This document shows, in pieces, positions 9,077-59,366 of a DNA stretch of 64,000 nt. Origin of the DNA: Verrucomicrobiota bacterium (lineage in GTDB: Bacteria > Verrucomicrobiota > Kiritimatiellia > CAIQIC01 > JAGNIJ01); assembly GCA_036821485.1 (NCBI GenBank), contig DAISJM010000001.1:72320-136319 (forward strand), given 5' to 3'. The notes under the pieces are model-generated. The model did not search any database. It was not told where the DNA came from and saw only the letters and a list, made by a program, of their open reading frames with translations. Position 1 is the first letter of the stretch, and the number at the start of each line of letters is the position of its first letter. The position numbers and the translations under genes are program-made.

Positions 9077-9613
9077 CTAGGTCAGATCCTTCTGTGTGAC
9101 GTCGATCCAGCGCAGGAGACGGGTGCGAAGCTGTTCGTCTACATCAAGGGCAGCGAGCCTCTTCCTCAAGGTTGTTCCGCGAATCAATCCCTCTCCAAGA
9201 AGCGTTCGGACGAAATCCCGATCCTTTTCTCGGTAGGCAACCAGCTTGCTTGCCGCAAGGTCGTGTGCCTCGATGCATAAACCCGTCTTGCCCCGTGTCC
9301 CTATCTCGTCCATGACGGGGATCACTCGAGATTGCCAGCCAGAAGGAAGGGAAGCCGCGGCCAGAGAGACTCCATGCACGTAAAACCCGAAGGATTCATA
9401 GAATGAAGAGAGCTCGCCCAAGGAGCCGTCGACTTCATCCACCTTTTCAGGGTGGTTCTTGGGCTGAATATCAACTTCAACAGAAGCGCAGATACTTTTG
9501 GGTGCGTCAGGATACTCCCCCAAGATCGCCTGGGAACCAAAGACCCACACCTCGGTATCGCCAGCGACCTCACAAGCAGCTCTGATCGCATGTTCGAGCT
9601 GGTCCCGCGTCAT
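9077..9613 (-). CDS. Small nucleotidyltransferase-fold protein (AbiEii/MNT-like candidate toxin)
   Basis: 178 aa. ..TEVWVFGSQAILGEY..SVEVDI.. fits the NTase hG[GS]...[DE]h[DE]h pattern. The start overlaps the upstream wHTH gene by 4 nt. Local GC is ~55%, against ~65% for the flanks. Confidence 0.55.
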   Translation of the reverse strand: MTRDQLEHAIRAACEVAGDTEVWVFGSQAILGEYPDAPKSICASVEVDIQPKNHPEKVDEVDGSLGELSSFYESFGFYVHGVSLAAASLPSGWQSRVIPVMDEIGTRGKTGLCIEAHDLAASKLVAYREKDRDFVRTLLGEGLIRGTTLRKRLAALDVDEQLRTRLLRWIDVTQKDLT

Positions 9614-10551
9614 GTCCTATTCCTCCGCTGAAGATCCTGCAAACGCGCCCGTTCTGCATTGCTCAGAACAGCCAAAAATGGACTGCTTTGCCGCAGGCGG
9701 CAAGCTCGAGGTGTGGATGACTCCATAAAACGCAGCAGTCGGCGACGAGGATATAGTTCCAGAATCTTCCGCCATTCGCTCAGATCGCGCTGGGCCGTTC
9801 CCTGGTCGTTCTTGAGCAATCGATCGAGATAAGCACGAGCGCGACGAATAAGGGATGGGTCATCCTCAATTGCGGAGACGAGGGCCTTGGACCATGCGGA
9901 TGAGCGCTCATCGAGATCTCGATGAGAGTTCGGCTTCCACGAGGCTGCCCTCGCCGGGGGTGTGACGGGCGGAACACCTGCAAGCAACAGGAGGGTCTGG
10001 GGATTCAGGTCCGGCAGGTCGGCGCGCGTGTATCCGCTGACTTCAATGGTGACATCAAACTTCTGCTCGATTCCTGCGAAGCGCCGTCGGGCGTCTGACG
10101 TCGTTGCTGATGTGTGTGCGCTTTCGCCCAGAATTCCAATCTCCAATGGGTCGCCAAGCTGCAGGGGGAGATTGCGAATCCAGACGGACTGCGGCGACGG
10201 AGACAGTTGTTGTGATTCCTGCCGTAGCGCGTCCATCAGTTCCTCGTATCGCTGCCGCTCTGCACGGAACAGGCTTGTTGTGATCTTCATCAATGGCTCT
10301 GACTCACGAAGAGCGTATTGCTGCTTGCGTCCGCCGCCGACCAATTCCACGAATCCTGAGTCGACGAGTCGCTCCAGCGCTTTGCGAGCGCCCATAACGG
10401 ACAATCCGGCCCTCTCCGCGATGTCAGGCGCGGAAAGCGAACCCTCGACCTCGTCGGTCAGGACCCGGAGCAATCTCACATTGGCTTCGGTTCCCAAGAT
10501 CTCGTTGAGGGGGTTACGCAAGACGCTTTGAGCAGACGAGATTGGCCTCAT
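9610..10551 (-). CDS. Winged-HTH domain protein (AbiEi-like candidate antitoxin/regulator)
   Basis: 313 aa. The N-terminus, LRVLTDEVEGSLSAPDIAERAGLSVMGARKALERLVDSGFVELV, is MarR-type wHTH. The promoter region is AT-rich and carries a palindrome. Confidence 0.55.
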   Translation of the reverse strand: MRPISSAQSVLRNPLNEILGTEANVRLLRVLTDEVEGSLSAPDIAERAGLSVMGARKALERLVDSGFVELVGGGRKQQYALRESEPLMKITTSLFRAERQRYEELMDALRQESQQLSPSPQSVWIRNLPLQLGDPLEIGILGESAHTSATTSDARRRFAGIEQKFDVTIEVSGYTRADLPDLNPQTLLLLAGVPPVTPPARAASWKPNSHRDLDERSSAWSKALVSAIEDDPSLIRRARAYLDRLLKNDQGTAQRDLSEWRKILELYPRRRLLRFMESSTPRACRLRQSSPFLAVLSNAERARLQDLQRRNRT

Positions 10552-10587
10552 GGTTCAGTTTCCTTTCAAACACTGTAACGTCTATAT

Positions 10588-10601
10588 ATACACTATAGTG
10601 T
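10588..10601. promoter_or_regulatory. 14-bp perfect palindrome TACACTATAGTGTA in the AT-rich promoter of the wHTH/NTase operon (candidate autoregulatory operator)
   Basis: It lies ~40 nt upstream of the 10551 start codon. TATATA/TATAAT-like hexamers flank it, and the RBS AAAGGAAA precedes the ATG. Confidence 0.4.
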
Positions 10602-10629
10602 AGAAAAGTAAACTATAATATATCTTGCC

Positions 10630-10689
10630 AGGACGGTTCGGCGAACCGTCCCTACCAACGACGAAGAGAACCGCTCGCAGAGCGGTTCT
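10630..10689 (-). terminator. Two stem-loops downstream of the molybdoenzyme operon (candidate intrinsic terminators/insulator)
   Basis: GAGAACCGCTC-GCA-GAGCGGTTCTC (10665-10689) is followed on the minus strand by UUCGUCGUUGG. GGACGGTTCG-G-CGAACCGTCC lies at 10630-10650. Confidence 0.4.
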
Positions 10690-10726
10690 CACACTCTCGG
10701 ACGAGAGACGCGGAATGGTCTGTAGC

Positions 10727-13168
10727 CTATGACTTCGCCTTCTTCTGCTTTCCGGGCGAGGTCTTGAATTCGTAGGCTTCGGGTTTCCCGAGGAAGCAGA
10801 GGCCGATGTAGTGGCCTTTCACATCGTCGTACGGGATGTGATTGAGCTCGAGCGCGATCTTCTCCGCGGTCAGCGGCATGCTCTTGATGCGGATCCCCAG
10901 CGCGTCTTCGATCGCGTTGGCGATGACCGGTGCGGCCGGGATCATGGTGTGCTCGCCGACGCCGCGCGCGCCGAACGGGCCATCGGGCTGCGCCACTTCG
11001 ACAATGATCGGCACAATCTCGTCGGGAATATCCAGTGCTGTCGGAATTTTGTAATCCGTAAAATTCGGGTTCAGCAGCTTGCCTTTGTGGTCATACCGGA
11101 TGTCTTCGTAGAGCGCTGTCGCGAGGCCCTGCACCACGCCGCCGGTGACCTGGCCTTTCACGAGGTCGGGGTTGATCGCTTTGCCGACGTCGGCTGCCAG
11201 CACCGCCTTCAGCACATGAATCTTGCCGGTCTTTCGGTCGATCTCCACTTTCACCGCCGAGGCGCCGACCGTGTAATGAACGTTCGGGTGTCCGCCCTGG
11301 CTGGTTTCCGGATCGCCTGTCGCCGAGGTGAATTCGGGCATGAACATGCCACTGCCGAGGATGGGCCCGCCGATGAAGTTCCCGCGCTTCGTCTGGATGC
11401 CGCTGATGACCATGTCCTTCAGCGCCATGGCGAAGTCGGGCTTCGTCCGGCACTTGATGGTCTCCTTTTCCAGGTAGAGGTCGGCGACGGCGAACCCGAG
11501 CGCGCGGTGTACCGTGTCGAAGATCTTCGCCTTTGCGTCAAGCGCCGCGGCCTTTACCGCGTTGCCGCAGCCCCACGTGACGTGCGAGCCGACGGTCTGC
11601 CATTCGTACGCGTTGCGGTCCGTGTCCGGCAACTCGACGCGGATATGTTCAACGGGAACAGTGAGCACCTCGGCCGCGACCTGCGCCATGACGGTAAGGA
11701 AGCCCTGCCCGATTTCCATGCCGGAGACGGTCAGGTTCAAGCTGCCATCTTCGTTGAACTTGATGAACGCCGCCGATGCGGCGTTCGGCGGCATCGCGGG
11801 CGCCTTCCAGAAGCAGGCGAAGCCCTTGCCGATGGCTTTGTTCGGGTCCTTCGACACTTCCTTCTTGCCCCAATCGATTTCCCTCGCAACCTTGTCGATG
11901 GCCTCGACAAGTCCGCTGGGATTCATCTCCGCGCCGTACGGCAGCGTGTCGCCGCCGCAAATGGCGTTCTTGCGCCGGAATTCGACGGGGTCCATGCCAA
12001 TCATCTTGGCGATGCGGTTCATATGCGACTCGAGGCCGAACATGAACTCCGAATAGCCGAAGCCGCGGTAAGGGCCGCCCGGCGGCAGGTTGGTATAGAC
12101 GCACACAGAATCGATTTTCACATTCGGCACGCGGTAGGGTCCGGTCGCGGAGAGGCCGACCGCGTTCACGACGTTCGCGCCGTACTCCACGTAGCCGCCG
12201 GCATCCCAGTGCAGGGTGTGTTCGATTGCGGTGATCGTGCCGTCCTTCTTCACGCCCAGCTTGATGCGGGCGATCACGCCCTGCCGCTGGTAGGTGTTGT
12301 AGAACTCCTGCGCGCGCGACCAGCGGACCTTGACCGGGTGGCCTTTGACCATCATGGCGAGGGCGGCGCCGAGGATTTCCATCGACACGCCTGCCTTGCC
12401 GCCGAATCCGCCGCCGACGTAGGGCGTGACCACGCGGACGTCCTTGTGCTTCAAGCCGAGCGGAGCGAGGGCCTCGGCGAACACGTGGCGCTGCGTGTAG
12501 GGCGATTGCGAGGCGGACCACAACGTGAGGCGGCCGGAGAGGTCGTAGAGGCCGACGATCACGTGCGGCTCGATCGCGCAGTGCGCGTAGCGCGGCACGG
12601 TGTAGGTGTCTTCGAGGATGGTGTCCGCTTCCTTGAATCCCTTTTCCATGTCGCCCTTGCGCGTCTTGCGCCAGTGGGCGATGTTGGTCCCGGCCTGCGG
12701 GAAGAACCACGCGCAGTGGTTGTACTTCTCGAGGTCCGGGTGGACGAGGGTGGCCTTCTCTTTCAGCGCGCCTTCCAGGTCGAGGACGTACGGCAGCTCC
12801 TCGTATTCTACGTGCACGAGCTTGGCCGCGAGCTTGGCTGTTTGCGCGTCGCGCGCGATGACGGCCGCGACCTGTTCGCCGACGAAGCGAACCCGATCGC
12901 GGGCGAAGATCCAGCGGTCCTGCATGTAGAGGCCGAAGCGGTAGGGGAAGTCGTCGCCGGTGACGACCTTGACCACGCCGGGAATCTTCTCGGCTTCTGC
13001 CGTGTCGATGTTCTTGATCCGTGCGTGGGCGAACGGGCTCTCGATGATTTCGGCATGCAGGAGGTTGGGGCCGAAATCCATGTCGTCCACGTACACCGCC
13101 GCGCCGCTGACCTTGTCCAGGCCATCGATGCGGACCGAGGGTTGTCCAACGTGTTTGAGTTCGCTCAT
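10727..13168 (-). CDS. Xanthine dehydrogenase family molybdopterin-binding large subunit
   Basis: 813 aa. GGGFGGK, the aldehyde oxidase/XDH a/b-hammerhead and MoCo-binding signatures are conserved throughout. Confidence 0.9.
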   Translation of the reverse strand: MSELKHVGQPSVRIDGLDKVSGAAVYVDDMDFGPNLLHAEIIESPFAHARIKNIDTAEAEKIPGVVKVVTGDDFPYRFGLYMQDRWIFARDRVRFVGEQVAAVIARDAQTAKLAAKLVHVEYEELPYVLDLEGALKEKATLVHPDLEKYNHCAWFFPQAGTNIAHWRKTRKGDMEKGFKEADTILEDTYTVPRYAHCAIEPHVIVGLYDLSGRLTLWSASQSPYTQRHVFAEALAPLGLKHKDVRVVTPYVGGGFGGKAGVSMEILGAALAMMVKGHPVKVRWSRAQEFYNTYQRQGVIARIKLGVKKDGTITAIEHTLHWDAGGYVEYGANVVNAVGLSATGPYRVPNVKIDSVCVYTNLPPGGPYRGFGYSEFMFGLESHMNRIAKMIGMDPVEFRRKNAICGGDTLPYGAEMNPSGLVEAIDKVAREIDWGKKEVSKDPNKAIGKGFACFWKAPAMPPNAASAAFIKFNEDGSLNLTVSGMEIGQGFLTVMAQVAAEVLTVPVEHIRVELPDTDRNAYEWQTVGSHVTWGCGNAVKAAALDAKAKIFDTVHRALGFAVADLYLEKETIKCRTKPDFAMALKDMVISGIQTKRGNFIGGPILGSGMFMPEFTSATGDPETSQGGHPNVHYTVGASAVKVEIDRKTGKIHVLKAVLAADVGKAINPDLVKGQVTGGVVQGLATALYEDIRYDHKGKLLNPNFTDYKIPTALDIPDEIVPIIVEVAQPDGPFGARGVGEHTMIPAAPVIANAIEDALGIRIKSMPLTAEKIALELNHIPYDDVKGHYIGLCFLGKPEAYEFKTSPGKQKKAKS

Positions 13169-13638
13169 GACCGCTTCCCTGCCTTCCTGCTCACTTCGCG
13201 AACGGCCTCGATGATGGGTTCATAGCCGGTGCAGCGGCACAGGTTGCCGGAAATCGCTTCCTGGATTTCCTTCTTGTCGGGGTGGCTATTGTGCCGGAGC
13301 AGTTCTGTCGCAGCCAGCACCATCCCCGACGCGCAGAAGCCGCATTGGAAAGCGTTGCGGTCGACGAACGCGTGTTGCAGCGGCGTCAGGCCGTCACGGC
13401 CGAGGCCTTCGACGGTGGTAATCTCATGTCCGTCCGCCTCGATGGCGAGGATGAGACAACTCCGGACGGTTTTCCCGTCGTAGAGGATTGTGCAGACGCC
13501 GCAGTCGCCGCGCTCGCAGCCGATCTTCGGGCTCTTGATGCCGAGCTTCTCGCGCAGGACATCCAGCAGGATGTCGGAGGGGGAGACATCGATGCTCCGA
13601 CGTTCACCGTTGAGCGTGATCGATATAGTCTTCTTCAT
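13165..13638 (-). CDS. (2Fe-2S)-binding small subunit of the molybdenum hydroxylase
   Basis: 157 aa with CERGDCGVCT and CGFCASGM cluster motifs. Its stop overlaps the large-subunit start. Confidence 0.9.
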   Translation of the reverse strand: MKKTISITLNGERRSIDVSPSDILLDVLREKLGIKSPKIGCERGDCGVCTILYDGKTVRSCLILAIEADGHEITTVEGLGRDGLTPLQHAFVDRNAFQCGFCASGMVLAATELLRHNSHPDKKEIQEAISGNLCRCTGYEPIIEAVREVSRKAGKRS

Positions 13639-13723
13639 GTGTGCTGCCTCGGAGTTGGAAAATCGAAATGTGAAAGTTGCCGGGAAGAGCCGGAGGTAAG
13701 TTTCCAGTTTCCAATTTCAAACG

Positions 13724-14614
13724 TCATATCAGCTCCTTCCCGTACTCGGGGCCGTCGCCCTCGAATCGTGAATCCGCCGCGCGGAGCGCGCGCTCCAACA
13801 TGACGCCGAGCATGTGCAACCGGTACTCCTTCGAAGAACGGATGTCGGTGATGGGCGACGCGATTTGTGGCACCATGGCAACCGCGGAGGCGACGAGCGC
13901 GTCCGTGATCGGCTTCCCCTCGAGCAGCTTCTCGATGGGCGTCGCGCGGATCGGGGTGGGGGCGACCGAACCGAAGGCGACGCGGTAGCTCTGCCCGTGG
14001 AACAGCATGACCGTGACGCTCGCCTGGGCGAGGTCCTCGCCGCTGTAGCGGCGCAATTTCACGAAGCAGCCCGCATGTTTTCTCCGGGGCTGCGGTATGG
14101 TGATGGCGACCGCGACCTCGCCCTTGTGGAGCGACGTCTTGCGCGGGCCGGTGAACCACTCCGCGATGGGAATCTTCCGCTTGCCCTTCGGGCCGGCCAC
14201 GTGAACCGTGGCATCGTAGACCAGCAGGATCGGGCCGCTATCGCAGCATGGGACGGCGGAGCAGATATTGCCGGCCATCGTCGCGCGATGCCGGATGCCG
14301 TTGGAAGCCACCCAGCCGATCATCTCGCGGATCAGCGGGAACTTCTTGCGGACCACGTTCGACTCGGCGATGTCGCTGAAGGTCGCAAGCGAGCCAATCC
14401 GGAGCGCGCCATCCTTGAGCGATACGCCGTCCAGCCCGCGGATGCCCTTGAGGTCGATCACCGCCTCGGGGCGGACGATGTCCTCCGTCATCAGGCTGAT
14501 GAGGTCGGTACCGCCCGCGAGCAGGCGACCGCGGTCGCCGTAGCGCGCCAGTGCCCGCGCGGCCTCGGCAACCGATGCGGGCTTCAGATAATCAAACGCA
14601 CGAGCAATGGTCAT
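13724..14614 (-). CDS. FAD-binding subunit (CoxM/XdhB-like) of the molybdenum hydroxylase
   Basis: Start trimmed to MTIARAFDYLKP (ATG at 14614) after a GGAAGGGAG RBS. LLAGGTDLISLM is the FAD-binding motif. Confidence 0.85.
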   Translation of the reverse strand: MTIARAFDYLKPASVAEAARALARYGDRGRLLAGGTDLISLMTEDIVRPEAVIDLKGIRGLDGVSLKDGALRIGSLATFSDIAESNVVRKKFPLIREMIGWVASNGIRHRATMAGNICSAVPCCDSGPILLVYDATVHVAGPKGKRKIPIAEWFTGPRKTSLHKGEVAVAITIPQPRRKHAGCFVKLRRYSGEDLAQASVTVMLFHGQSYRVAFGSVAPTPIRATPIEKLLEGKPITDALVASAVAMVPQIASPITDIRSSKEYRLHMLGVMLERALRAADSRFEGDGPEYGKELI

Positions 14615-14649
14615 GATGCTCCCTTCCGCGTTCCGCTCTCCTGATTCAA

Positions 14650-15468
14650 TTACTTGGGCGGCAGCATCGCGACGATGCGACACTGCGCCGATTCCAGTTC
14701 AATTCCGCGCATCGGGAAGCAGCCGATCCAGCAGCGCTGGTTGCTCAGCTTCCCGATCTCGCCGCCGATATTCTCCGCATGCACGAGTTTCTTGGGGAAC
14801 AACTTGAGATGCATGACCTGGTAGTAGTAATCCGGCGGGAACATCTCGTCCCAGCTCTTGCCGTACTTCGCCTTCAGCTTGGCCTCGGCCTCGAGGAACC
14901 GTGCCGGATGCCAGGTGCGGATAATCGTGTTCATGGGGTGATCCGCGCTGCCGCAGTCGACGCCGATCCACTTGATCTTCATCTTCAGCGCCCACTTGTC
15001 GAAGCCGGGGCCGGGGCCAGGATGTTTCACGAAGTAACGGACTTCGTCCGAACCGGGCTGATCCCATGCGTAGCGATTGTAGCCGGTGTTGATGATCAGG
15101 ATGTCGCCCTTCCGGATGTCCGCGCGTTTCATCAGCATTTCGGGCGAATAGAGGTCATAGTCGCCGACGTCTTTTGAAATATCGACGACGACGCCGGGGC
15201 CGATCCACTCCTTGATCGGCACGTTGCCGATCGACCGGCCACTGGCATGGAAATGGATTTCACCATCCATGTGCGTGCCCACGTGGTTGCTCATGGTGAT
15301 GATCTGCCCGTTCGCGCCTTGGCCCATGTGTGCGCCGGCGATGCGCTTGAAATACTGGATGCCCATCGGCATATAGCTCGGCCACGGCGGCGTGTGAATG
15401 CTTAGCCGCTGGGTCAGATCGAACACGCGCGCTTCAGCCATTAATTTGATGAAATCGTTAGTCTTCAT
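14650..15468 (-). CDS. Cyclase-family protein (kynurenine formamidase-like metal-dependent hydrolase)
   Basis: 272 aa. The HVGTHMDGEIHF motif is typical of the putative-cyclase family. Confidence 0.8.
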   Translation of the reverse strand: MKTNDFIKLMAEARVFDLTQRLSIHTPPWPSYMPMGIQYFKRIAGAHMGQGANGQIITMSNHVGTHMDGEIHFHASGRSIGNVPIKEWIGPGVVVDISKDVGDYDLYSPEMLMKRADIRKGDILIINTGYNRYAWDQPGSDEVRYFVKHPGPGPGFDKWALKMKIKWIGVDCGSADHPMNTIIRTWHPARFLEAEAKLKAKYGKSWDEMFPPDYYYQVMHLKLFPKKLVHAENIGGEIGKLSNQRCWIGCFPMRGIELESAQCRIVAMLPPK

Positions 15469-15510
15469 TTTCCCGCACCTCCGGTTTCGTGTTGTTCGTG
15501 TCTTTCGTGG

Positions 15511-16791
15511 TTACTTCTTTAATCCTTTTGCCAATCCTTCAAACGCCTTCCGGAACGGTTCCAGCGGGGCGTTCAGCACGCCCGCGCCGATCTGGCCGAC
15601 ACCCGCCTGCTTGTGCGCGACACCGGTGTCGATGAACGGAAGGATGTTCTTCTCGATGATCTTCACGACGTCGATGCCAGTCGGTGTGCCGCGGAAATTG
15701 AGCGCCGGCACCTGGTACGCGTTATTCTCCCCGGCGGTGATTTCGTACATCTGTGTCGTGTAGCGAATCGAGTCGGCGACCTGGCCGCCGACGAACTGGA
15801 CAATCGCAGGCGCGGCGGCGATGGCGAAGCCGCCGAGGCCGTTGGTTTCCGTGATCGCGCTGTCGCCGATGTCCGGATTCGCGTCGGCCTTCGTGTAGCC
15901 GGGGAAATACAGCGCATCCGGCACGTCGGCAGGCCCGGTGAACCACGCGTTGCCCGTGCCGGCGAGTTGTACGCCGAAGTCGGTGCCGTTGCGCGCCATG
16001 ACGACTGCCACGCTGCTATTGGGGATGTTGCGCGCGGCATCGAGTGTCGCCTTCGATGCGGGCATGGAGAGGTTCAGGAAGAAGTGGTCGTTATGGTTGA
16101 TGAACTCCAGCACGTCGGAAGCGGTCTTCGGATCCGGCGCAGTGGTGATGACGGCCGGTGCAATCGTGCGATAGAGGATGGACGTTCCCGCGCGATTGCG
16201 GTTGTGGACCTCGTCGCCCATATGCAGCGCCTGCGCAATGATGTTCTTCAAATCGATCACGCCGATTTTCGCGATGGCCTTTTTCAGCGTCGGATAGAGC
16301 ACGCGCTCCATCCATTTGAGTCTCGCCACAACATCGTCCCCGTAGGCGCCGTAGCGCAGCACTTTGCCCAGCCCCTCGTTCTGCGTGCAGTAGGCGAAGT
16401 TGCCGAACGTGGCATTCTTCAGGACGAACACGGGCATGGAAGGGGAGATGATGCCGGCCATAGGGCCGACTGATGCGTGCTCGTGGCAGGGCGCATATTT
16501 GATGGTGCCGGATGACGCGAGGGCCTCGGCCTCTGTCGGGTTCTTTGCGCGGCCTTCATAGATCAGTGCGCCCATGATCGCGCCGCGCATCGGGCCGCAC
16601 ATCCGTTCCCAAGTCACCGGCGGGCCGGCGTGCAGGATCAGGTCGCGTTTCATGCCGGGGATGATGTCGATCGCGCGCTCCATGCCCACGAGCTGCGGCA
16701 TGCCGCCCAAGATGATTTCGATCGCCTTGCGGTTGGCCTTCTCAATGGCCGGTCGCCGTGCCGCGATGATCCGCAGAAGCTTGTCATCCAT
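15511..16791 (-). CDS. DUF1116 protein (YlbE homolog; oxamate carbamoyltransferase subunit family)
   Basis: Start chosen at MDDKLLRIIAARRP, giving 426 aa, close to E. coli YlbE at ~419 aa. LHAGPPVTWERMCGPMRGAIMGAL..YAPCHEHASVGPMAG match the family. The alternative GTG at 16932 (GTGA overlap with fdrA) would add 47 aa. Confidence 0.7.
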   Translation of the reverse strand: MDDKLLRIIAARRPAIEKANRKAIEIILGGMPQLVGMERAIDIIPGMKRDLILHAGPPVTWERMCGPMRGAIMGALIYEGRAKNPTEAEALASSGTIKYAPCHEHASVGPMAGIISPSMPVFVLKNATFGNFAYCTQNEGLGKVLRYGAYGDDVVARLKWMERVLYPTLKKAIAKIGVIDLKNIIAQALHMGDEVHNRNRAGTSILYRTIAPAVITTAPDPKTASDVLEFINHNDHFFLNLSMPASKATLDAARNIPNSSVAVVMARNGTDFGVQLAGTGNAWFTGPADVPDALYFPGYTKADANPDIGDSAITETNGLGGFAIAAAPAIVQFVGGQVADSIRYTTQMYEITAGENNAYQVPALNFRGTPTGIDVVKIIEKNILPFIDTGVAHKQAGVGQIGAGVLNAPLEPFRKAFEGLAKGLKK

Positions 16792-16928
16792 GTCCACCGG
16801 TGGCTTCCAGTCCACCTGTACCGCCTGTGCGCCGGAGGATGCCAGCGCATCCTTGAACGACGACAAGCCGAAGTTGACCACCTTGAGGTCCGTTTCAAAA
16901 AGCTGGTTAATGCCGCTCTTCTTCTTGC

Positions 16929-18428
16929 TCACTTCCCACCTGCCTTTGCCGCGTTGCCGGCGTATGCACACGCTGCGGCGTTGCTCGGCATCACGATGGC
17001 TCCAGCAGCCTTCAGGGCTTTGACCACCCGTGAACGATTCTGCGGGTCGCCGTCGGTGCCGGTGACCGAACATACCACCGGAACTTTGCGCGAGGCCGTG
17101 CGGATCACCGGTGCAAGTTCCGCGGCCGGGTCCATGTTCGAGCCGTAACCGAGTACGACGTCCAGCAGGATCACGGCAGTCTCGGGATCAGCCGCCTCCG
17201 CCAGAATCCGTTTGTTGCGTAACGAGAAGTCGATCATCGGATGCGGTCGGCCGACGGTAAACTCGTCCTCGCCCAGATCGACGAACGAGTGCTTCTGGCT
17301 CTTCAACGAATCCTTGAGCCGCTTCGTCCTGCCGGTCGGCGCGTTGGAGTAGAGTTGGCCGAGCGTGTCCTCGAGAATGATTTGCGCTTCTGCGCAGAAC
17401 GTTCCGCCGCTGAACAAGCCCCGGACGTATTTGCGGCGGCCGCGGGCGCGCCGCGGCCGGCTCTGAGATCCGACCCTATCTTGAAGGTCTTCAATCTTGC
17501 GGCCTGTCGCGAGCGCAACTGCTTGCAGCGCAGCCTCTTCCAGCGTCTTTGGTCCGTCTCCTTCCGCGCCGAGAAGTAGCGAGACAACGGGCTTACGGAT
17601 GCGGCGCACTTCACGGCGGACGCGGTTCAGCACGCTGGGGTGGGGCGGTTTGGAGACGAGCAGGATGACCTTCGTCTGCGGGTCGGCGGCGAGCGCCTTC
17701 AGGCCGGCGAGGAACATGATGCCGCCGACTTCCTTCTTTACGTCGCGCCCGCCCGTGCCGATTGCCTGTGAAATACCGGAGCCTTCGTTGGAGATGATGG
17801 TGCTGACTTCCTGGAGTCCGGTTCCGGCGGCGGCGACGATGCCGATCGGGCCGCGGCGAACCACGTTGGCGAAGGCGAGCGGGATGCCGTTGATGATCGC
17901 CGTGCCGCAGTCGGGACCCATGACGAGCAATCCCTTCTTTGCCGCGAACTTCTTGAGTTCGATTTCCTTCTCGATCGGCACGTTGTCGGAAAAGAGCATG
18001 ACGTGCAGGCCCTTCTCAAGACAGCGCATCGCGAGCGAGCCGGCATAACGACCGGCGACGGAGATCAACGCGAGGTTCGCGCCCGGCAGAACCTTCACGG
18101 CGCCGTCGAGATCAGACGGGAGCGTTTCACCGGAGGAAGTCCCGACGGCCGCGGCCTTGCTCTTGAGCGCGGCCTCGGCTGCGTTCAAAGCGGCCTCGGC
18201 TGTCTTGGCATCGCGCGCCTTCACGGCCAGCAGCAGGTCGGTATCGGTTGCCTTGGCAAAATCGGAGATCAGCAGGCCGGACGCCTTGAGGATGCCGAGG
18301 TTCGACTTCGTGCCCATGACAAGCGCGGCTTCGGCGACGCCGTCCGTGCCGGCAATGCTTTTGCCTACGCGCATCAGCGAGACGGAATCGTGGTAGGCGC
18401 CCTTTTTGATTCTGCCGAGGGTAATCAT
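16929..18428 (-). CDS. fdrA: FdrA-family protein (acyl-CoA synthetase/succinyl-CoA-synthetase-alpha-like)
   Basis: 499 aa. MITLGRIKKGAYHDSVSLMRV is a typical FdrA N-terminus, followed by CoA-binding and ATP-grasp-like regions. Confidence 0.85.
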   Translation of the reverse strand: MITLGRIKKGAYHDSVSLMRVGKSIAGTDGVAEAALVMGTKSNLGILKASGLLISDFAKATDTDLLLAVKARDAKTAEAALNAAEAALKSKAAAVGTSSGETLPSDLDGAVKVLPGANLALISVAGRYAGSLAMRCLEKGLHVMLFSDNVPIEKEIELKKFAAKKGLLVMGPDCGTAIINGIPLAFANVVRRGPIGIVAAAGTGLQEVSTIISNEGSGISQAIGTGGRDVKKEVGGIMFLAGLKALAADPQTKVILLVSKPPHPSVLNRVRREVRRIRKPVVSLLLGAEGDGPKTLEEAALQAVALATGRKIEDLQDRVGSQSRPRRARGRRKYVRGLFSGGTFCAEAQIILEDTLGQLYSNAPTGRTKRLKDSLKSQKHSFVDLGEDEFTVGRPHPMIDFSLRNKRILAEAADPETAVILLDVVLGYGSNMDPAAELAPVIRTASRKVPVVCSVTGTDGDPQNRSRVVKALKAAGAIVMPSNAAACAYAGNAAKAGGK

Positions 18429-28368: not shown

Positions 28369-28632
28369 GTGTCGGGAGCAAGGGCAAGAGCGAGAGCATG
28401 TGCCTTCGGCAGTCGTCTTGCCCCTTGCTTGAAAGGATTCCTTTTCCGTCCCACTCTCTCCCTGTCTTCATTGCAAGTCCCCCTCCTCTCTCTTTTCTTG
28501 CACGTAGAGCAGAGACTTCATGCGCATATGCGCATGAAGTCATATGCGTTGCGAGGGTTGAGGCCTCTGTGAGTCGCGAAAGATGAAATATTCGTGAGTC
28601 GTGAGGGATGAGATCTTCAGCACGGGCGGCGC
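28369..28632. mobile_element. Low-GC (~48%) insert immediately after the transketolase-like stop, containing a 24-bp perfect palindrome
   Basis: The palindrome is CTTCATGCGCATATGCGCATGAAG at 28516-28539. A hairpin AGGGCAAGA...TCTTGCCC and a direct repeat GTGAGTCG x2 are also present. Composition is unlike the flanks. Confidence 0.5.
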
Positions 28633-58626: not shown

Positions 58627-59366
58627 GGGGGGTAAAGTTGGTTCGCCGAATTCCGGGGTGCTGCGAGAGAGAGGGATTGCGTCCGCGGCCGAGACGCGTG
58701 GCGGCTGAGGCCGCGAGGATCACGCGCGATCCCGGCCCGTCTTCTTCGTTGTCGCCAGCGGCGCGGACATCAGTCCAGCGCCGCCGGCGACGCCTTGAAT
58801 ACGGACCGGTCTGGCGCGTTCCCTCGCTTGGGCTCGCTACGCTCGCCCGACCTCAGCCGCCCCGCGGTATCCGACTCGCGGCTCGGAGGACCTCGCCGCG
58901 AGTGAGAATCCCCGACGGCTGTGATCGTGAGAATCTGGAGTGCGGCGGCTCGACGCCGCTCTTCCGAGCGCCCAACGTCGGAGGGATCGAGTACGAGCAC
59001 GAAAGGGTAGAGCCGGGGGTACATTGGCTACGACAGGTAGGGCGCGCACTCCGTTGCGCGCCGCTATGGCGGGCTGAGGGTCAAATACACGAAGCACACG
59101 AAAAAGGGATTTCGTGTCTCTCGTCTATTTCGTGGTGACCTCTTCTTCTGAGAATCGGCGAACCAACTTTACGAAATCATCGCCTGCGGCCGCTTTGTAG
59201 ACGCGATTTCGAAATCGCGTCTACGCAAACGCAAGGCGTCCCCGGACAAGTCGCGCGACGGAGGACGGACTCTGCACTCCAGTCTTCTCCGTGCCTCCGT
59301 GGTTCGTCTTGTGTTTCTTGTGCCTTTTCGTGGCCAATCCGAATTCGGCGAACCGACCTTACCGGC
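58627..59366. repeat. Upstream repeat cluster: three copies of GGTAAAGYTGGTKCGCCGAATT (two inverted), X/Y motifs shared with 50290-50470, and a 28-bp GTAG...CTAC REP-like palindrome
   Basis: Copies lie at 58627-58658 (+), 59153-59172 (rc) and 59339-59365 (rc). GTAGACGCGATTTCGAAATCGCGTCTAC is at 59197-59224. The region immediately upstream of the giant GH gene is AT-rich. Confidence 0.6.

Follow-up and report, generated by a model that had tools for sequence, protein, structure and literature searches.

A DUF6036 nucleotidyltransferase and its DNA-binding partner: a candidate toxin–antitoxin module resembling AbiE and MenAT in layout

What is the role of a small nucleotidyltransferase (NTase) whose gene overlaps that of a DNA-binding protein in a low-GC islet of a Kiritimatiellia genome? 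The islet lies in a 64,000-nucleotide stretch of DNA, the whole of which is referred to here as the window. An earlier note on this DNA had likened the pair to the AbiEi–AbiEii toxin–antitoxin and abortive infection modules, while allowing for a minimal or unclassified variant. The two open reading frames that it described, a 313-aa partner protein and a 178-aa NTase, were recovered exactly, as was their overlap of 4 nt (ATGA). The features of the locus are collected in Table 1. The low GC content of the pair is a genuine signal, at 57.4% (NTase 55.7%, partner 58.3%) compared with 62.1% for the window and 63–65% for the genes on either side, although the contrast first reported (about 55% against about 65%) was overstated. 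Among sliding windows of equal length the pair is in the lowest 1.8% by GC, with a GC3 of 61–62% as opposed to 75–86% in the neighbouring genes, and the promoter stretch (10552-10628) has a GC content of 30%. Upstream is a xanthine-dehydrogenase-like gene or operon, and the two hairpins previously described are both present directly 3′ of its stop codon. The 111-nt hairpin stretch has a computed folding energy of -47 kcal/mol (z = -3.2 relative to shuffles). No Rfam family, nearby tRNA or meaningful flanking direct repeat was found around the islet. A 20-bp perfect palindrome within the partner gene (9907-9926) is not kept in the closest homologue and was set aside as a chance occurrence.

Table 1. 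Features of the NTase–partner locus, in window coordinates; operator, promoter and ribosome binding site (RBS) entries are predictions.
Feature	Position	Strand	Remarks
Partner gene (putative antitoxin/repressor)	9610..10551	-	313 aa; ORF list
DUF6036 NTase gene (putative toxin)	9077..9613	-	178 aa; ORF list
Hairpin 1, GAGAACCGCTC-TGC-GAGCGGTTCTC	10666..10690	-	11-bp arms; probable terminator of the xanthine-dehydrogenase-like operon
Hairpin 2, GGACGGTTCG-C-CGAACCGTCC	10631..10651	-	10-bp arms; 5′ of the promoter
Operator O1, ATTATAGT (minus strand)	10612..10619	.	putative; -68 from ATG, 20 bp from O2, abuts the -35-like TTTACT
Operator O2, perfect 14-bp palindrome TACACTATAGTGTA	10589..10602	.	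putative; in the promoter spacer
O2 core, ACTATAGT	10592-10599		-48 from the partner ATG; single exact ACTATAGT in the 64-kb window
Possible weak operator O3, GTTACAGT (minus strand)	10572..10579	.	candidate; -28, 20 bp from O2, 5/8 match
Putative sigma-70-like promoter	10583..10612	-	-35 TTTACT 10607-10612, 18-nt spacer with O2, -10 TATATA 10583-10588
Partner RBS, AGGA	10561..10564	-	read from sequence
N-terminal winged-HTH (wHTH) segment	10306..10509	-	Pfam DUF7342, HTH_24; Foldseek ArsR/MarR matches
Long helix, aa 86-114	10210..10296	-	AF2 secondary structure, pLDDT about 90
Small beta-beta-alpha-beta-beta domain, aa 122-192	9976..10188	-	AF2 model
C-terminal helical domain, aa 209-312	9616..9927	-	DUF6036-partner domain; motif EW..IL...ERAxRLRQSxPF..L..ER
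NTase RBS, GGAGGA, strong	9621..9626	-	in the 3′ part of the partner ORF, 7 nt 5′ of ATG; read from sequence
NTase motif I, G26-S27 (hG[GS])	9533..9538	-	G26 140/140, S27 139/140 family members
NTase motif II, S44-V-E46-V-D48	9470..9484	-	S44 140/140, E46 139/140, D48 139/140
NTase motif III/IV-like helix, K123-L-V-A-Y-R128-E-K-D131	9221..9247	-	K123, R128, D131 each 140/140

The NTase fold assigned to the second protein is supported by a match to the Pfam family DUF6036 (PF19502) that passes the gathering threshold (26.8 bits, cut-off 23.6) and by an AF2 model with an alpha-beta-alpha-beta topology (pLDDT 96.3). Its 2726 homologues are distributed across phyla at 62–94% identity and are labelled PF19502 or “DUF6036 family nucleotidyltransferase”. 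The terms “DUF6036” and “DUF7342”, the latter a family matched by the partner, were not found in the searchable literature, where a look for experimental reports on toxicity also gave none, and the entries PF19502 and PF24033 are labels in which no function, partner link, operator or toxin–antitoxin role is recorded. Searches of the PDB by sequence, both with the single protein and with a profile, gave no match, and a viral fold search in BFVD returned noise only. The best PDB match by fold is TglT/MenT3, which is weak (TM 0.44–0.48, Foldseek E 0.35).

Judged by their residues, the catalytic motifs of the enzyme are intact, and D118 is likewise invariant in the 140 sequences compared. The correspondence of these motifs, as the pattern R-x-S-x-[DE]-h-D and KLxAa, with those published for AbiEii (motif II R-x-[ST]-x-D-h-D) and MenT was drawn by eye, using residue numbers from the papers. 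On this basis E46 and D48 would form the metal-binding acidic pair and S44 would occupy the phospho-acceptor position of MenT, as the spacing of S44/E46-x-D48 is that of MenT1 T39/D41xD43 and MenT3 S78/D80 (PMC11375011, PMC7450476). The K123 helix resembles motif III, “KLxAaxxR”, of the AbiEii family DUF1814/COG4849 (PMC3985639). Two AbiEii mutants, R63A and D67E, are non-toxic (PMC3985639). Position 42 of the present family is Arg in 121 of 140 members and Cys in the clade of the window copy. Since R63A appears to be the equivalent change in AbiEii, the window copy may be attenuated.

It could be asked whether the pair is a genuine but highly diverged member of AbiEi/AbiEii (COG5340/DUF1814), as the earlier note proposed. 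The gene order, the wHTH-first layout and the autoregulatory repeats are shared with that system, MenT3/TglT is the nearest fold, and motifs I–III can be matched by eye. Sequence comparison nonetheless makes membership highly improbable. No AbiEi or AbiEii (PF08843) match was obtained in Pfam, PADLOC or NCBIfam at E <= 1, whereas two real AbiEii proteins, found by motif search among the retrieved loci (L020 and L043), scored 7.7e-45 and 1.6e-33 in the same Pfam library. Alignment of 150 DUF6036 sequences with three AbiEii proteins by hhalign gave a probability below 1%; the sole region that hhalign aligned with a real AbiEii was the K123-region motif, at a non-significant E of 0.09. The Asp of this motif is at K+8, as opposed to K+15 to K+22 in AbiEii and MenT. 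The enzyme is also about 100 residues shorter than AbiEii, DUF6036 is a separate family in Pfam, and the C-terminal domain of the partner has no detectable similarity to known families. Neither AbiEi nor Rv2827c structures occur among the best 50 PDB matches listed for the partner, which are mostly wHTH proteins, and as far as sequence comparison indicates this domain is not the AbiEi C-terminal domain. The likeness to AbiEii and MenT is thus one without statistical support (no Pfam or PADLOC match, hhalign below 1%, Foldseek E 0.35). The comparative data agree with the proposal of a minimal or unclassified variant.

A 178-aa enzyme invites a second comparison. Small resistance NTases combine an NTase core with a helical C-terminal half and belong to this size class. 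The enzyme may therefore be a benign modifier of a small molecule or antibiotic (of ANT or Lnu size), of RNA or of protein, placed under a ligand-responsive repressor. This reading draws on the core and helical layout, on the catabolic genes that adjoin the pair in the window and on the nature of the partner, which has additional domains but is clearly a transcription factor. It is nevertheless unlikely. NCBIfam, a library that includes resistance-gene models, gave no match to the enzyme, and the top Foldseek matches in the PDB are toxin NTases, with no ANT or Lnu among the 50 listed. Elsewhere the pair is found in unrelated neighbourhoods, which provide no pathway context, and horizontal transfer has given it a patchy distribution. 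A further difficulty is that the C-terminal domain of the partner remains coupled to the NTase even where a DNA-binding domain is absent, for which a ligand-sensing repressor is ill-fitting.

For the partner itself, a 100% identical protein is encoded in a Kiritimatiellia MAG, and the AF2 model has a pLDDT of 85. Homologues of the partner go by the name “DUF7342 family protein”. From the model and the family matches three parts are recognised: a DUF7342-type wHTH, then a small alpha/beta domain, and at the C-terminus a helical domain of about 100 aa. The N-terminal winged-HTH that had been predicted is borne out: Pfam DUF7342 (PF24033) passes its gathering threshold (34.6 bits, cut-off 31.6), spanning aa 32-115 alone (the wHTH and a helix), and HTH_24 also matches the N-terminus. 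A profile of the partner (A1) matches ArsR at 3e-6, Foldseek places the protein near ArsR/MarR wHTH proteins, and sequence and profile searches of the PDB gave ArsR/MarR wHTH matches only. The long helix that follows is, from the model, a probable dimerisation element. The beta-beta-alpha-beta-beta domain has its own conserved residues (W124, E162, F165-D166-x-T-I-E170 and G173-Y-T-x-A-D178); as it is absent from XRE-type partners and from those without a DNA-binding domain, it is placed outside the core module. Assignment of the partner to PDC-M05A was rejected because the PADLOC match (E 7e-5) covers the wHTH alone and the NTase has no PADLOC match.

The C-terminal helical domain accompanies DUF6036 constantly, while the DNA-binding part varies between a wHTH, an XRE-type HTH and none. 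The domain of the window copy aligns with that of an XRE-type partner from a Comamonas plasmid (hhalign probability 96%, E 3.8e-9), and XRE-type partners carrying the homologous domain occur on plasmids. Stand-alone forms of about 104 aa have been observed as well, each overlapping and just upstream of a DUF6036 gene. The family comprises 4035 clusters at 50% identity (E <= 1e-3), and no model in Pfam or NCBIfam covers the domain. Fusion of partner and NTase was not seen, as DUF6036 is present in 0 of 10 checked longer representatives with an N-terminal partner domain. Antitoxins usually consist of a fixed enzyme-associated domain joined to interchangeable DNA-binding domains.

The small helical domain raises the question of polarity. 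Minimal NTases are the antitoxins in HepT/MntA systems. By analogy with these type VII systems, the NTase could neutralise the helical domain by nucleotidylating it (at the Ser of RLRQSSP or at Y267), in which case the helical domain would be the effector or toxin. The HEPN-MNT cassettes likewise pair a minimal NTase with a small all-helical protein, often in overlapping genes, are horizontally mobile and are frequent near CRISPR-cas loci. The present domain is small and all-helical, has invariant H, R, R and S residues and is found stand-alone, and one minimal pair resides in a type III-B CRISPR locus, a setting where HEPN-MNT pairs are common. Such a reversal is quite unlikely all the same, as several features differ. 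The Rx4-6H motif is absent (alignments A4 and A5), and no Pfam HEPN match was obtained even at E 0.5 across 41 partner-domain members. The NTase has no match to MNT families such as NTP_transf_2, so that the check for MNT or HEPN suggested in the earlier note was negative on both sides. The gene order is opposite to that of mntA-hepT, with the NTase second, and the DNA-binding fusion is carried by the helical domain, not by the NTase. The helical domain is in the gene that comes first and is the one joined to DNA-binding domains, an arrangement typical of antitoxins. Finally, sequence change has been slower in the NTase than in the partner, with mean pairwise identities of 64% and 33–48%, respectively.

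The putative control region lies between the partner gene and the hairpins. The palindrome TACACTATAGTGTA is present as reported and is perfect. The window contains 13 perfect palindromes of at least 14 bp, compared with 5.9 in block shuffles. The sequence is thus statistically unremarkable alone, and its meaning derives from its conservation in other genomes. The earlier proposal of an operator palindrome within an AT-rich promoter holds to that extent, but not as a single palindrome: across loci the operator reads as an array of 8–12-bp palindromes at 20-bp spacing. Upstream of the partner gene, 9.75 kb of sequence contain 82 copies of the motif A[CT]TATA[AG]T and 687 kb elsewhere contain 17, a 340-fold enrichment, and 23 of 30 neighbouring sites are spaced exactly 20 bp apart. 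In the 64-kb window it is found only at O1 and O2 (-68 and -48). The operator core is conserved across more than 10 bacterial phyla, and the motif was not found upstream of partners that lack a wHTH. The recognition-helix variant covaries with the operator, PGA(Q/R)KAL occurring with ACTATAGT and SGVRRAL with ATTATAAT.

In many loci one operator site overlaps TTGACA and the next is in the promoter spacer. A generic sigma-70 scan gave no promoter above threshold at the partner gene of the window; the promoter in Table 1 was placed by aligning the sequence to ACTATAGTTGACA-N17-TATTAT, a family pattern present in many loci, and so is deduced from homologous loci. In the same way, the position of the possible O3 is that predicted by the 20-bp periodicity of other loci. 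The predicted wHTH of the partner, together with phased conserved palindromes in its own promoter, is consistent with repression. As the ACTATAGT array overlaps the -35 element and the spacer, it is proposed that the wHTH binds these 20-bp-phased palindromes and represses the operon.

The pairing is conserved well beyond this genome. In each of the 84 loci for which upstream DNA is available, representing more than 10 phyla, the gene next upstream of the NTase is a partner homologue, and overlaps of 1–20 nt are seen in 77 of 80 pairs. Pairwise identities of the NTase correlate with those of each partner domain (r = 0.85), which indicates that both genes travel as one unit. Members of this NTase family occur in no fewer than 448 species-level genomes, which represent more than 10 phyla. 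Relatives are carried by 60 PLSDB plasmids, 40 of them conjugative or mobilisable; none was found by tblastn in 50,697 phage records. The cassette is horizontally acquired and mobile. The architecture that had been noted, with the wHTH protein first and a small coupled NTase second, is as described, and the islet that holds both was acquired horizontally.

The neighbourhoods bear on a further explanation, in which the pair is an accessory of nucleic-acid immune systems, either CRISPR type III or restriction-linked, and not an autonomous addiction module. One minimal pair lies inside a Cmr (type III-B CRISPR) locus (L091-L094), and a FokI-like nuclease, type I HsdR, a type II REase, HmaC, PDC-S01 and WYL proteins are among the other neighbours seen. 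PIN, Fic, HipA, restriction and other defence genes recur. The 127 nearest neighbours, however, represent 121 Pfam families, many of them housekeeping, with no conserved third gene and no recurring defence system. There are no defence genes near the window copy, and the pair has what appear to be its own promoter and operator. An accessory role is accordingly rated as improbable.

The features generally associated with toxin–antitoxin modules are found together at these loci: a compact pair, a DNA-binding partner encoded first, coupling, an operator, patchy horizontal transfer, carriage on plasmids and no fixed neighbours. The explanation that we favour, with confidence only slightly above even, is that the pair constitutes an autoregulated NTase toxin–antitoxin module similar to AbiE and MenAT, yet drawn from different protein families. 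In addition to repressing the operon, the partner would bind the DUF6036 NTase through its C-terminal domain, in which EW and RLRQSxP are invariant, and keep it inactive. We infer this physical contact and the NTase as the toxic component. Inactivation could occur by sequestration or by induced self-phosphorylation of S44, which lies two residues before E46-x-D48. Self-phosphorylation induced by the antitoxin has been demonstrated in MenA/MenT and AbiEi/AbiEii. Once released by depletion or displacement of the partner, the NTase would transfer nucleotides onto a cellular target, which by analogy with MenT may be the 3′ ends of tRNA. Growth would then stop, and the element could be stabilised or phage infection aborted.

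How this module would relate to the known systems can be set out. As in AbiE (COG5340 with DUF1814/COG2253; Dy et al. 2014, PMC3985639), it is bicistronic with overlapping genes and is carried on mobile elements. The first AbiE protein has a wHTH at its N-terminus and a neutralising domain at its C-terminus, and repeated palindromes in its own promoter are the sites through which it exerts repression. The NTase encoded second is of the pol-beta superfamily and shows hG[GS], an acidic pair and a motif III that contains Lys. Unlike AbiE, neither protein here belongs to the respective sequence family, the NTase has 178 aa instead of about 290 aa, and its first metal ligand would be Glu instead of Asp. 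The operator has two or three short palindromes (8–12 bp) phased at 20 bp in place of two 23-bp inverted repeats, and the partner differs by the additional beta-beta-alpha-beta-beta domain and by a C-terminal domain that is unrelated. The likeness to MenAT of M. tuberculosis, in which the tRNA-modifying NTase toxins MenT1, MenT3 and MenT4 are paired with MenA antitoxins (PMC7450476, PMC10435456, PMC11375011), includes the weak fold match to MenT3/TglT, an invariant Ser two residues before the acidic pair, an invariant Lys in the following helix (compare K137 and K189) and antitoxins that are encoded upstream and diverse, with a tiny helical protein at one end of the range and a wHTH fusion at the other. 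MenT belongs to DUF1814, however, whereas the present enzyme is a DUF6036 protein.

More broadly, and with confidence somewhat short of even, it is suggested that DUF6036 and the partner domain represent an unrecognised and widespread family of NTase toxin–antitoxin or defence modules. In these, a helical core present in more than 2,000 clusters (50% identity) would silence a “minimal MenT-like” enzyme, possibly through auto-phosphorylation of S44. The protein families were previously unstudied, and neither of the libraries searched, Pfam and NCBIfam, contains the partner domain. To our knowledge, the characterised NTase toxins are all DUF1814 proteins. If the suggestion is true, the auto-phosphorylation mechanism would extend beyond DUF1814, and the enzyme would be the smallest known NTase toxin scaffold.

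NTase toxins such as AbiEii and MenT block translation through modification of tRNA ends. They are of importance for phage defence, for the stability of plasmids and ICEs and for the physiology of M. tuberculosis. The present locus suggests a second, much smaller NTase family that shares their operon logic. As the phased ACTATAGT operator is well defined, autoregulation is directly testable by EMSA and reporter assays. Should toxicity be confirmed, the repertoire of NTase toxins would grow, a compact scaffold would become available for studies of how antitoxins switch such enzymes off, and thousands of gene pairs now annotated as “hypothetical” or as “MarR/XRE regulator” could be re-annotated.

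The partner gene, which encodes the putative antitoxin or repressor, and the nucleotidyltransferase (NTase) gene lie where the earlier note had placed them, and their ORFs share the four bases ATGA. The GC content of the pair is 57.4% against 62.1% for the window, within the lowest 1.8% of equal-length sliding windows, and its GC3 is 61-62% versus 75-86% in three neighbouring genes. Thus, the pair is compositionally foreign. The low-GC islet that had been described stands, whereas the claimed contrast of ~55% against ~65% was overstated; the remaining observations of that note (overlap, promoter palindrome and two hairpins) are confirmed. A protein from a Kiritimatiellia MAG is 100% identical to the partner.

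Positions of the features (window coordinates unless a fetched locus or protein residues are named)
Feature	Position	Strand	Remark
NTase gene	9077-9613	(-)	178 aa ORF
Partner gene	9610-10551	(-)	313 aa ORF
NTase ribosome-binding site GGAGGA	7 nt before NTase ATG, within end of partner gene	(-)	
Partner ribosome-binding site AGGA	ahead of partner gene		
NTase codon 42	9488-9490		Cys in the window's clade, two residues before invariant Ser44
Perfect 14-bp palindrome TACACTATAGTGTA	10589-10602		
Hairpin	10631-10651		perfect
Hairpin	10666-10690		perfect
Xanthine-dehydrogenase/aldehyde-oxidase-like operon	10727-17100	(-)	Mo, 2Fe-2S and FAD subunits, cyclase, AllG-family protein
Partner winged helix (wHTH)	about aa 15-82		AF2 model
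Partner long helix	aa 86-114		AF2 model
Partner beta-beta-alpha-beta-beta domain	aa 122-192		AF2 model
Partner disordered linker	about aa 195-208		AF2 model
Partner C-terminal helical domain	aa 209-312		AF2 model
AbiEii-type gene, locus L020	1649-3130	(-)	PF08843 by Pfam
AbiEii-type gene, locus L043	14344-15258	(+)	PF08843 by Pfam
AbiEii-type ORF, locus L069	2748-3320	(-)	motif search only

The operon upstream of the pair, on the same strand, resembles a cluster for purine or heterocycle catabolism and seems unrelated to the pair. Both hairpins lie 3′ of the stop codon of its Mo-subunit gene, in a region with a folding energy of -47 kcal/mol (z = -3.2), and are most simply read as the terminator of this operon. 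The genes downstream are convergent on the pair, and there is no defence island around it in the window. Other palindromes occur: two perfect 28-bp examples, both intergenic and far above chance length for 64 kb (GACTTCATGCGCATATGCGCATGAAGTC at 28514-28541 and GTAGACGCGATTTCGAAATCGCGTCTAC at 59197-59224), may serve unrelated genes as operators or terminators. A perfect 20-bp palindrome inside the partner gene (CTCATCGAGATCTCGATGAG, 9907-9926), which encodes SHRDLDE where the C-terminal domain begins, is probably due to chance as it is not kept in the closest homologue (locus L009).

Every one of the 84 fetched loci that retain upstream DNA has a partner homologue directly ahead of the NTase gene, and the genes overlap in 77 of 80 pairs, 41 of them by 4 nt, 17 by 11 nt and 13 by 20 nt. 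For each partner domain, pairwise identity correlates with that of the NTase (r = 0.85), and the NTase is the slower-evolving gene (mean identity 64% versus 33-48% for the partner domains). On 60 PLSDB plasmids, 40 of them conjugative or mobilisable, more distant DUF6036 genes (38-46% identity) follow XRE-type HTH genes that overlap them; no relative was found in the phage records searched. Around the pair, the 127 closest ORFs of the fetched loci represent 121 Pfam families, with no conserved third gene among them. Recurring neighbours include PIN, Fic, HipA, DUF4143/AAA_14 (PDC-S01), restriction enzymes and other defence candidates, interspersed with housekeeping genes. Single loci place the pair beside IS elements, type I HsdR and VapBC, a WYL regulator or a FokI-like nuclease, or inside a Cmr CRISPR locus. 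Against this mixture of neighbours, a role as accessory to a defence system is quite improbable.

The partner was modelled by AF2 in five parts (pLDDT 85). DUF7342 scores above threshold over aa 32-115 only, and generic wHTH families match as well; a profile of 58 homologues matches ArsR, and Foldseek returns ArsR/MarR wHTH proteins. The partner gene of locus L043 (7063-7984) is split by a frameshift that falls precisely within the flexible linker (aa 177-210) and puts the wHTH part out of frame with the C-terminal domain; either a natural division of the domains or an assembly error could explain it.

The C-terminal domain is the constant half of the partner. By hhalign, aa 209-308 share homology with the last ~100 residues of a Comamonas XRE protein (probability 96%, E 3.8e-9), and the domain profile also retrieves many stand-alone proteins of ~104 aa, which overlap a DUF6036 gene by 20 nt in three of three independent look-ups. 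Since the domain is common to wHTH, XRE-type and stand-alone partners, the minimal system is this helical domain with DUF6036, and the DNA-binding domains are optional, interchangeable additions. Antitoxins are usually built in this manner, with exchangeable DNA-binding domains added to a core. A search of 1.84 billion representatives assigns 4035 clusters to the family at E <= 1e-3, or 2093 at the stricter E <= 1e-10; the domain stands alone or forms the C-terminus of 200-350-aa proteins. It is not represented by any model in Pfam or NCBIfam. The residues that never vary include a His where the domain begins, an EW pair and, within ERAxRLRQSxPF, LRQ-x-S-P. One minimal pair (L091-L094, 4001-4826; a 104-aa helical protein devoid of a DNA-binding domain and a 176-aa DUF6036 NTase with a 20-nt overlap) is flanked by Cas02710-family and Cas_NE0113-family genes within a type III-B (Cmr) CRISPR-cas locus. 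Further representatives, such as P0406 (249 aa), carry the domain behind unexpected N-terminal parts, one being a GGACT/AIG2-like gamma-glutamyl cyclotransferase domain; it is also N-terminal in 190-260-aa proteins, the rest of which has no Pfam match.

The palindrome lies in an AT-rich promoter (10552-10628, 30% GC). Its length is not rare in the window, where 13 palindromes of at least 14 bp were observed against 5.9 expected from shuffles, and it is read as an operator because of the comparison with other loci. This took in the 150 nt ahead of the partner gene in 80 loci with NTase relatives, fetched from species-representative genomes (448 genomes matched), and in metagenome contigs besides. 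By eye, AAACTATAGTTT-like palindromes occur there in multiple copies. The 8-mer ACTATAGT, with one mismatch allowed, is enriched 108-fold, and exact A[CT]TATA[AG]T 340-fold (82 sites in 9.75 kb versus 17 in 687 kb elsewhere). Of 65 distinct loci, 52 have one site or more. The step between adjacent sites is exactly 20 bp in 23 of 30 cases and 40 bp in four others. At many loci the middle site merges with a TTGACA -35 box and the next occupies the spacer ahead of a TATTAT -10 box. The window has only two matches in its 64 kb, at 10592 (-48) and 10612 (-68), 20 bp apart, with a degenerate GTTACAGT another 20 bp along at -28. The motif is tied to the winged helix because it was not found upstream of partners without a wHTH, neither XRE-type nor those devoid of a DNA-binding domain, and because loci with different operators differ in the recognition helix (SGVRRAL with ATTATAAT operators, PGA(Q/R)KAL in others). 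Judged from these sequences, autoregulation by the partner through a putative phased operator array is well supported. It is highly probable that the two genes are autoregulated and function together; a benign enzyme under such regulation has a small but real chance.

The NTase matches Pfam DUF6036, “nucleotidyltransferase of unknown function”. Its retrieved homologues number 2726, the best 120 listed being 62-94% identical across phyla. In the AF2 model (pLDDT 96), a helical C-terminal half comes after an alpha-beta-alpha-beta NTase core. Among 140 distinct DUF6036 sequences, G26, S44, D118, K123, R128 and D131 are invariant and S27, E46 and D48 are kept in 139, giving the motifs (R/C)42-A-S44-x-E46-x-D48 and K123-L-x-A-Y-R128-E-K-D131. 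The DUF1814 toxins AbiEii and MenT have hG[GS]-x15-DhD, preceded by R63 in AbiEii (PMC3985639), a phospho-acceptor S/T two residues ahead of the first Asp (MenT1 T39/D41xD43, MenT3 S78/D80; PMC7450476, PMC11375011), and a motif III Lys (“KLxAaxxR” in COG4849) followed by a later Asp (PMC3985639, PMC7450476, PMC11375011). The likeness to DUF6036 at motif level is suggestive and, being matched by eye, a lead and not a proof. AbiEii R63A is non-toxic (PMC3985639). Since the equivalent Arg is required for AbiEii toxicity, NTase activity may be altered or weakened in the window's clade, which has Cys at position 42 (12 of 140 sequences) versus Arg in 121.

DUF6036 is not demonstrably close to AbiEii/MenT in statistical terms. 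Its profiles align with three AbiEii proteins at an hhalign probability below 1%, and the best Foldseek PDB matches, to toxin TglT/MenT3, are weak (TM 0.44-0.48, E 0.35). At E <= 1, no AbiEi, AbiEii, MNT or HEPN model of Pfam, PADLOC or NCBIfam matches either protein. The AbiE-like interpretation of the earlier note survives as functional analogy and fails as family assignment; true AbiE membership is highly improbable. A reversed polarity of the HEPN-MNT kind has a slim chance. In three fetched loci, a DUF6036 module has an AbiEii-type gene at a distance of a few kb (Pfam E-values of 1e-45 in L020 and 1e-33 in L043), suggesting that the two NTase systems accumulate in common variable regions.

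The principle of an NTase toxin paired with a wHTH antitoxin is already known; the protein families, partner domain and phased operator are undescribed. The names DUF6036 and DUF7342 are absent from searchable full-text literature, and the Pfam labels exist without anything attached. We lean modestly towards the full statement, the model with the best support, that the cassette is an autoregulated, toxin-antitoxin-like NTase module of a new family. The partner wHTH would repress the promoter of the pair and the C-terminal domain would neutralise the NTase. Free NTase would nucleotidylate a cellular target; the analogy with MenT makes tRNA 3′ ends the likeliest one.
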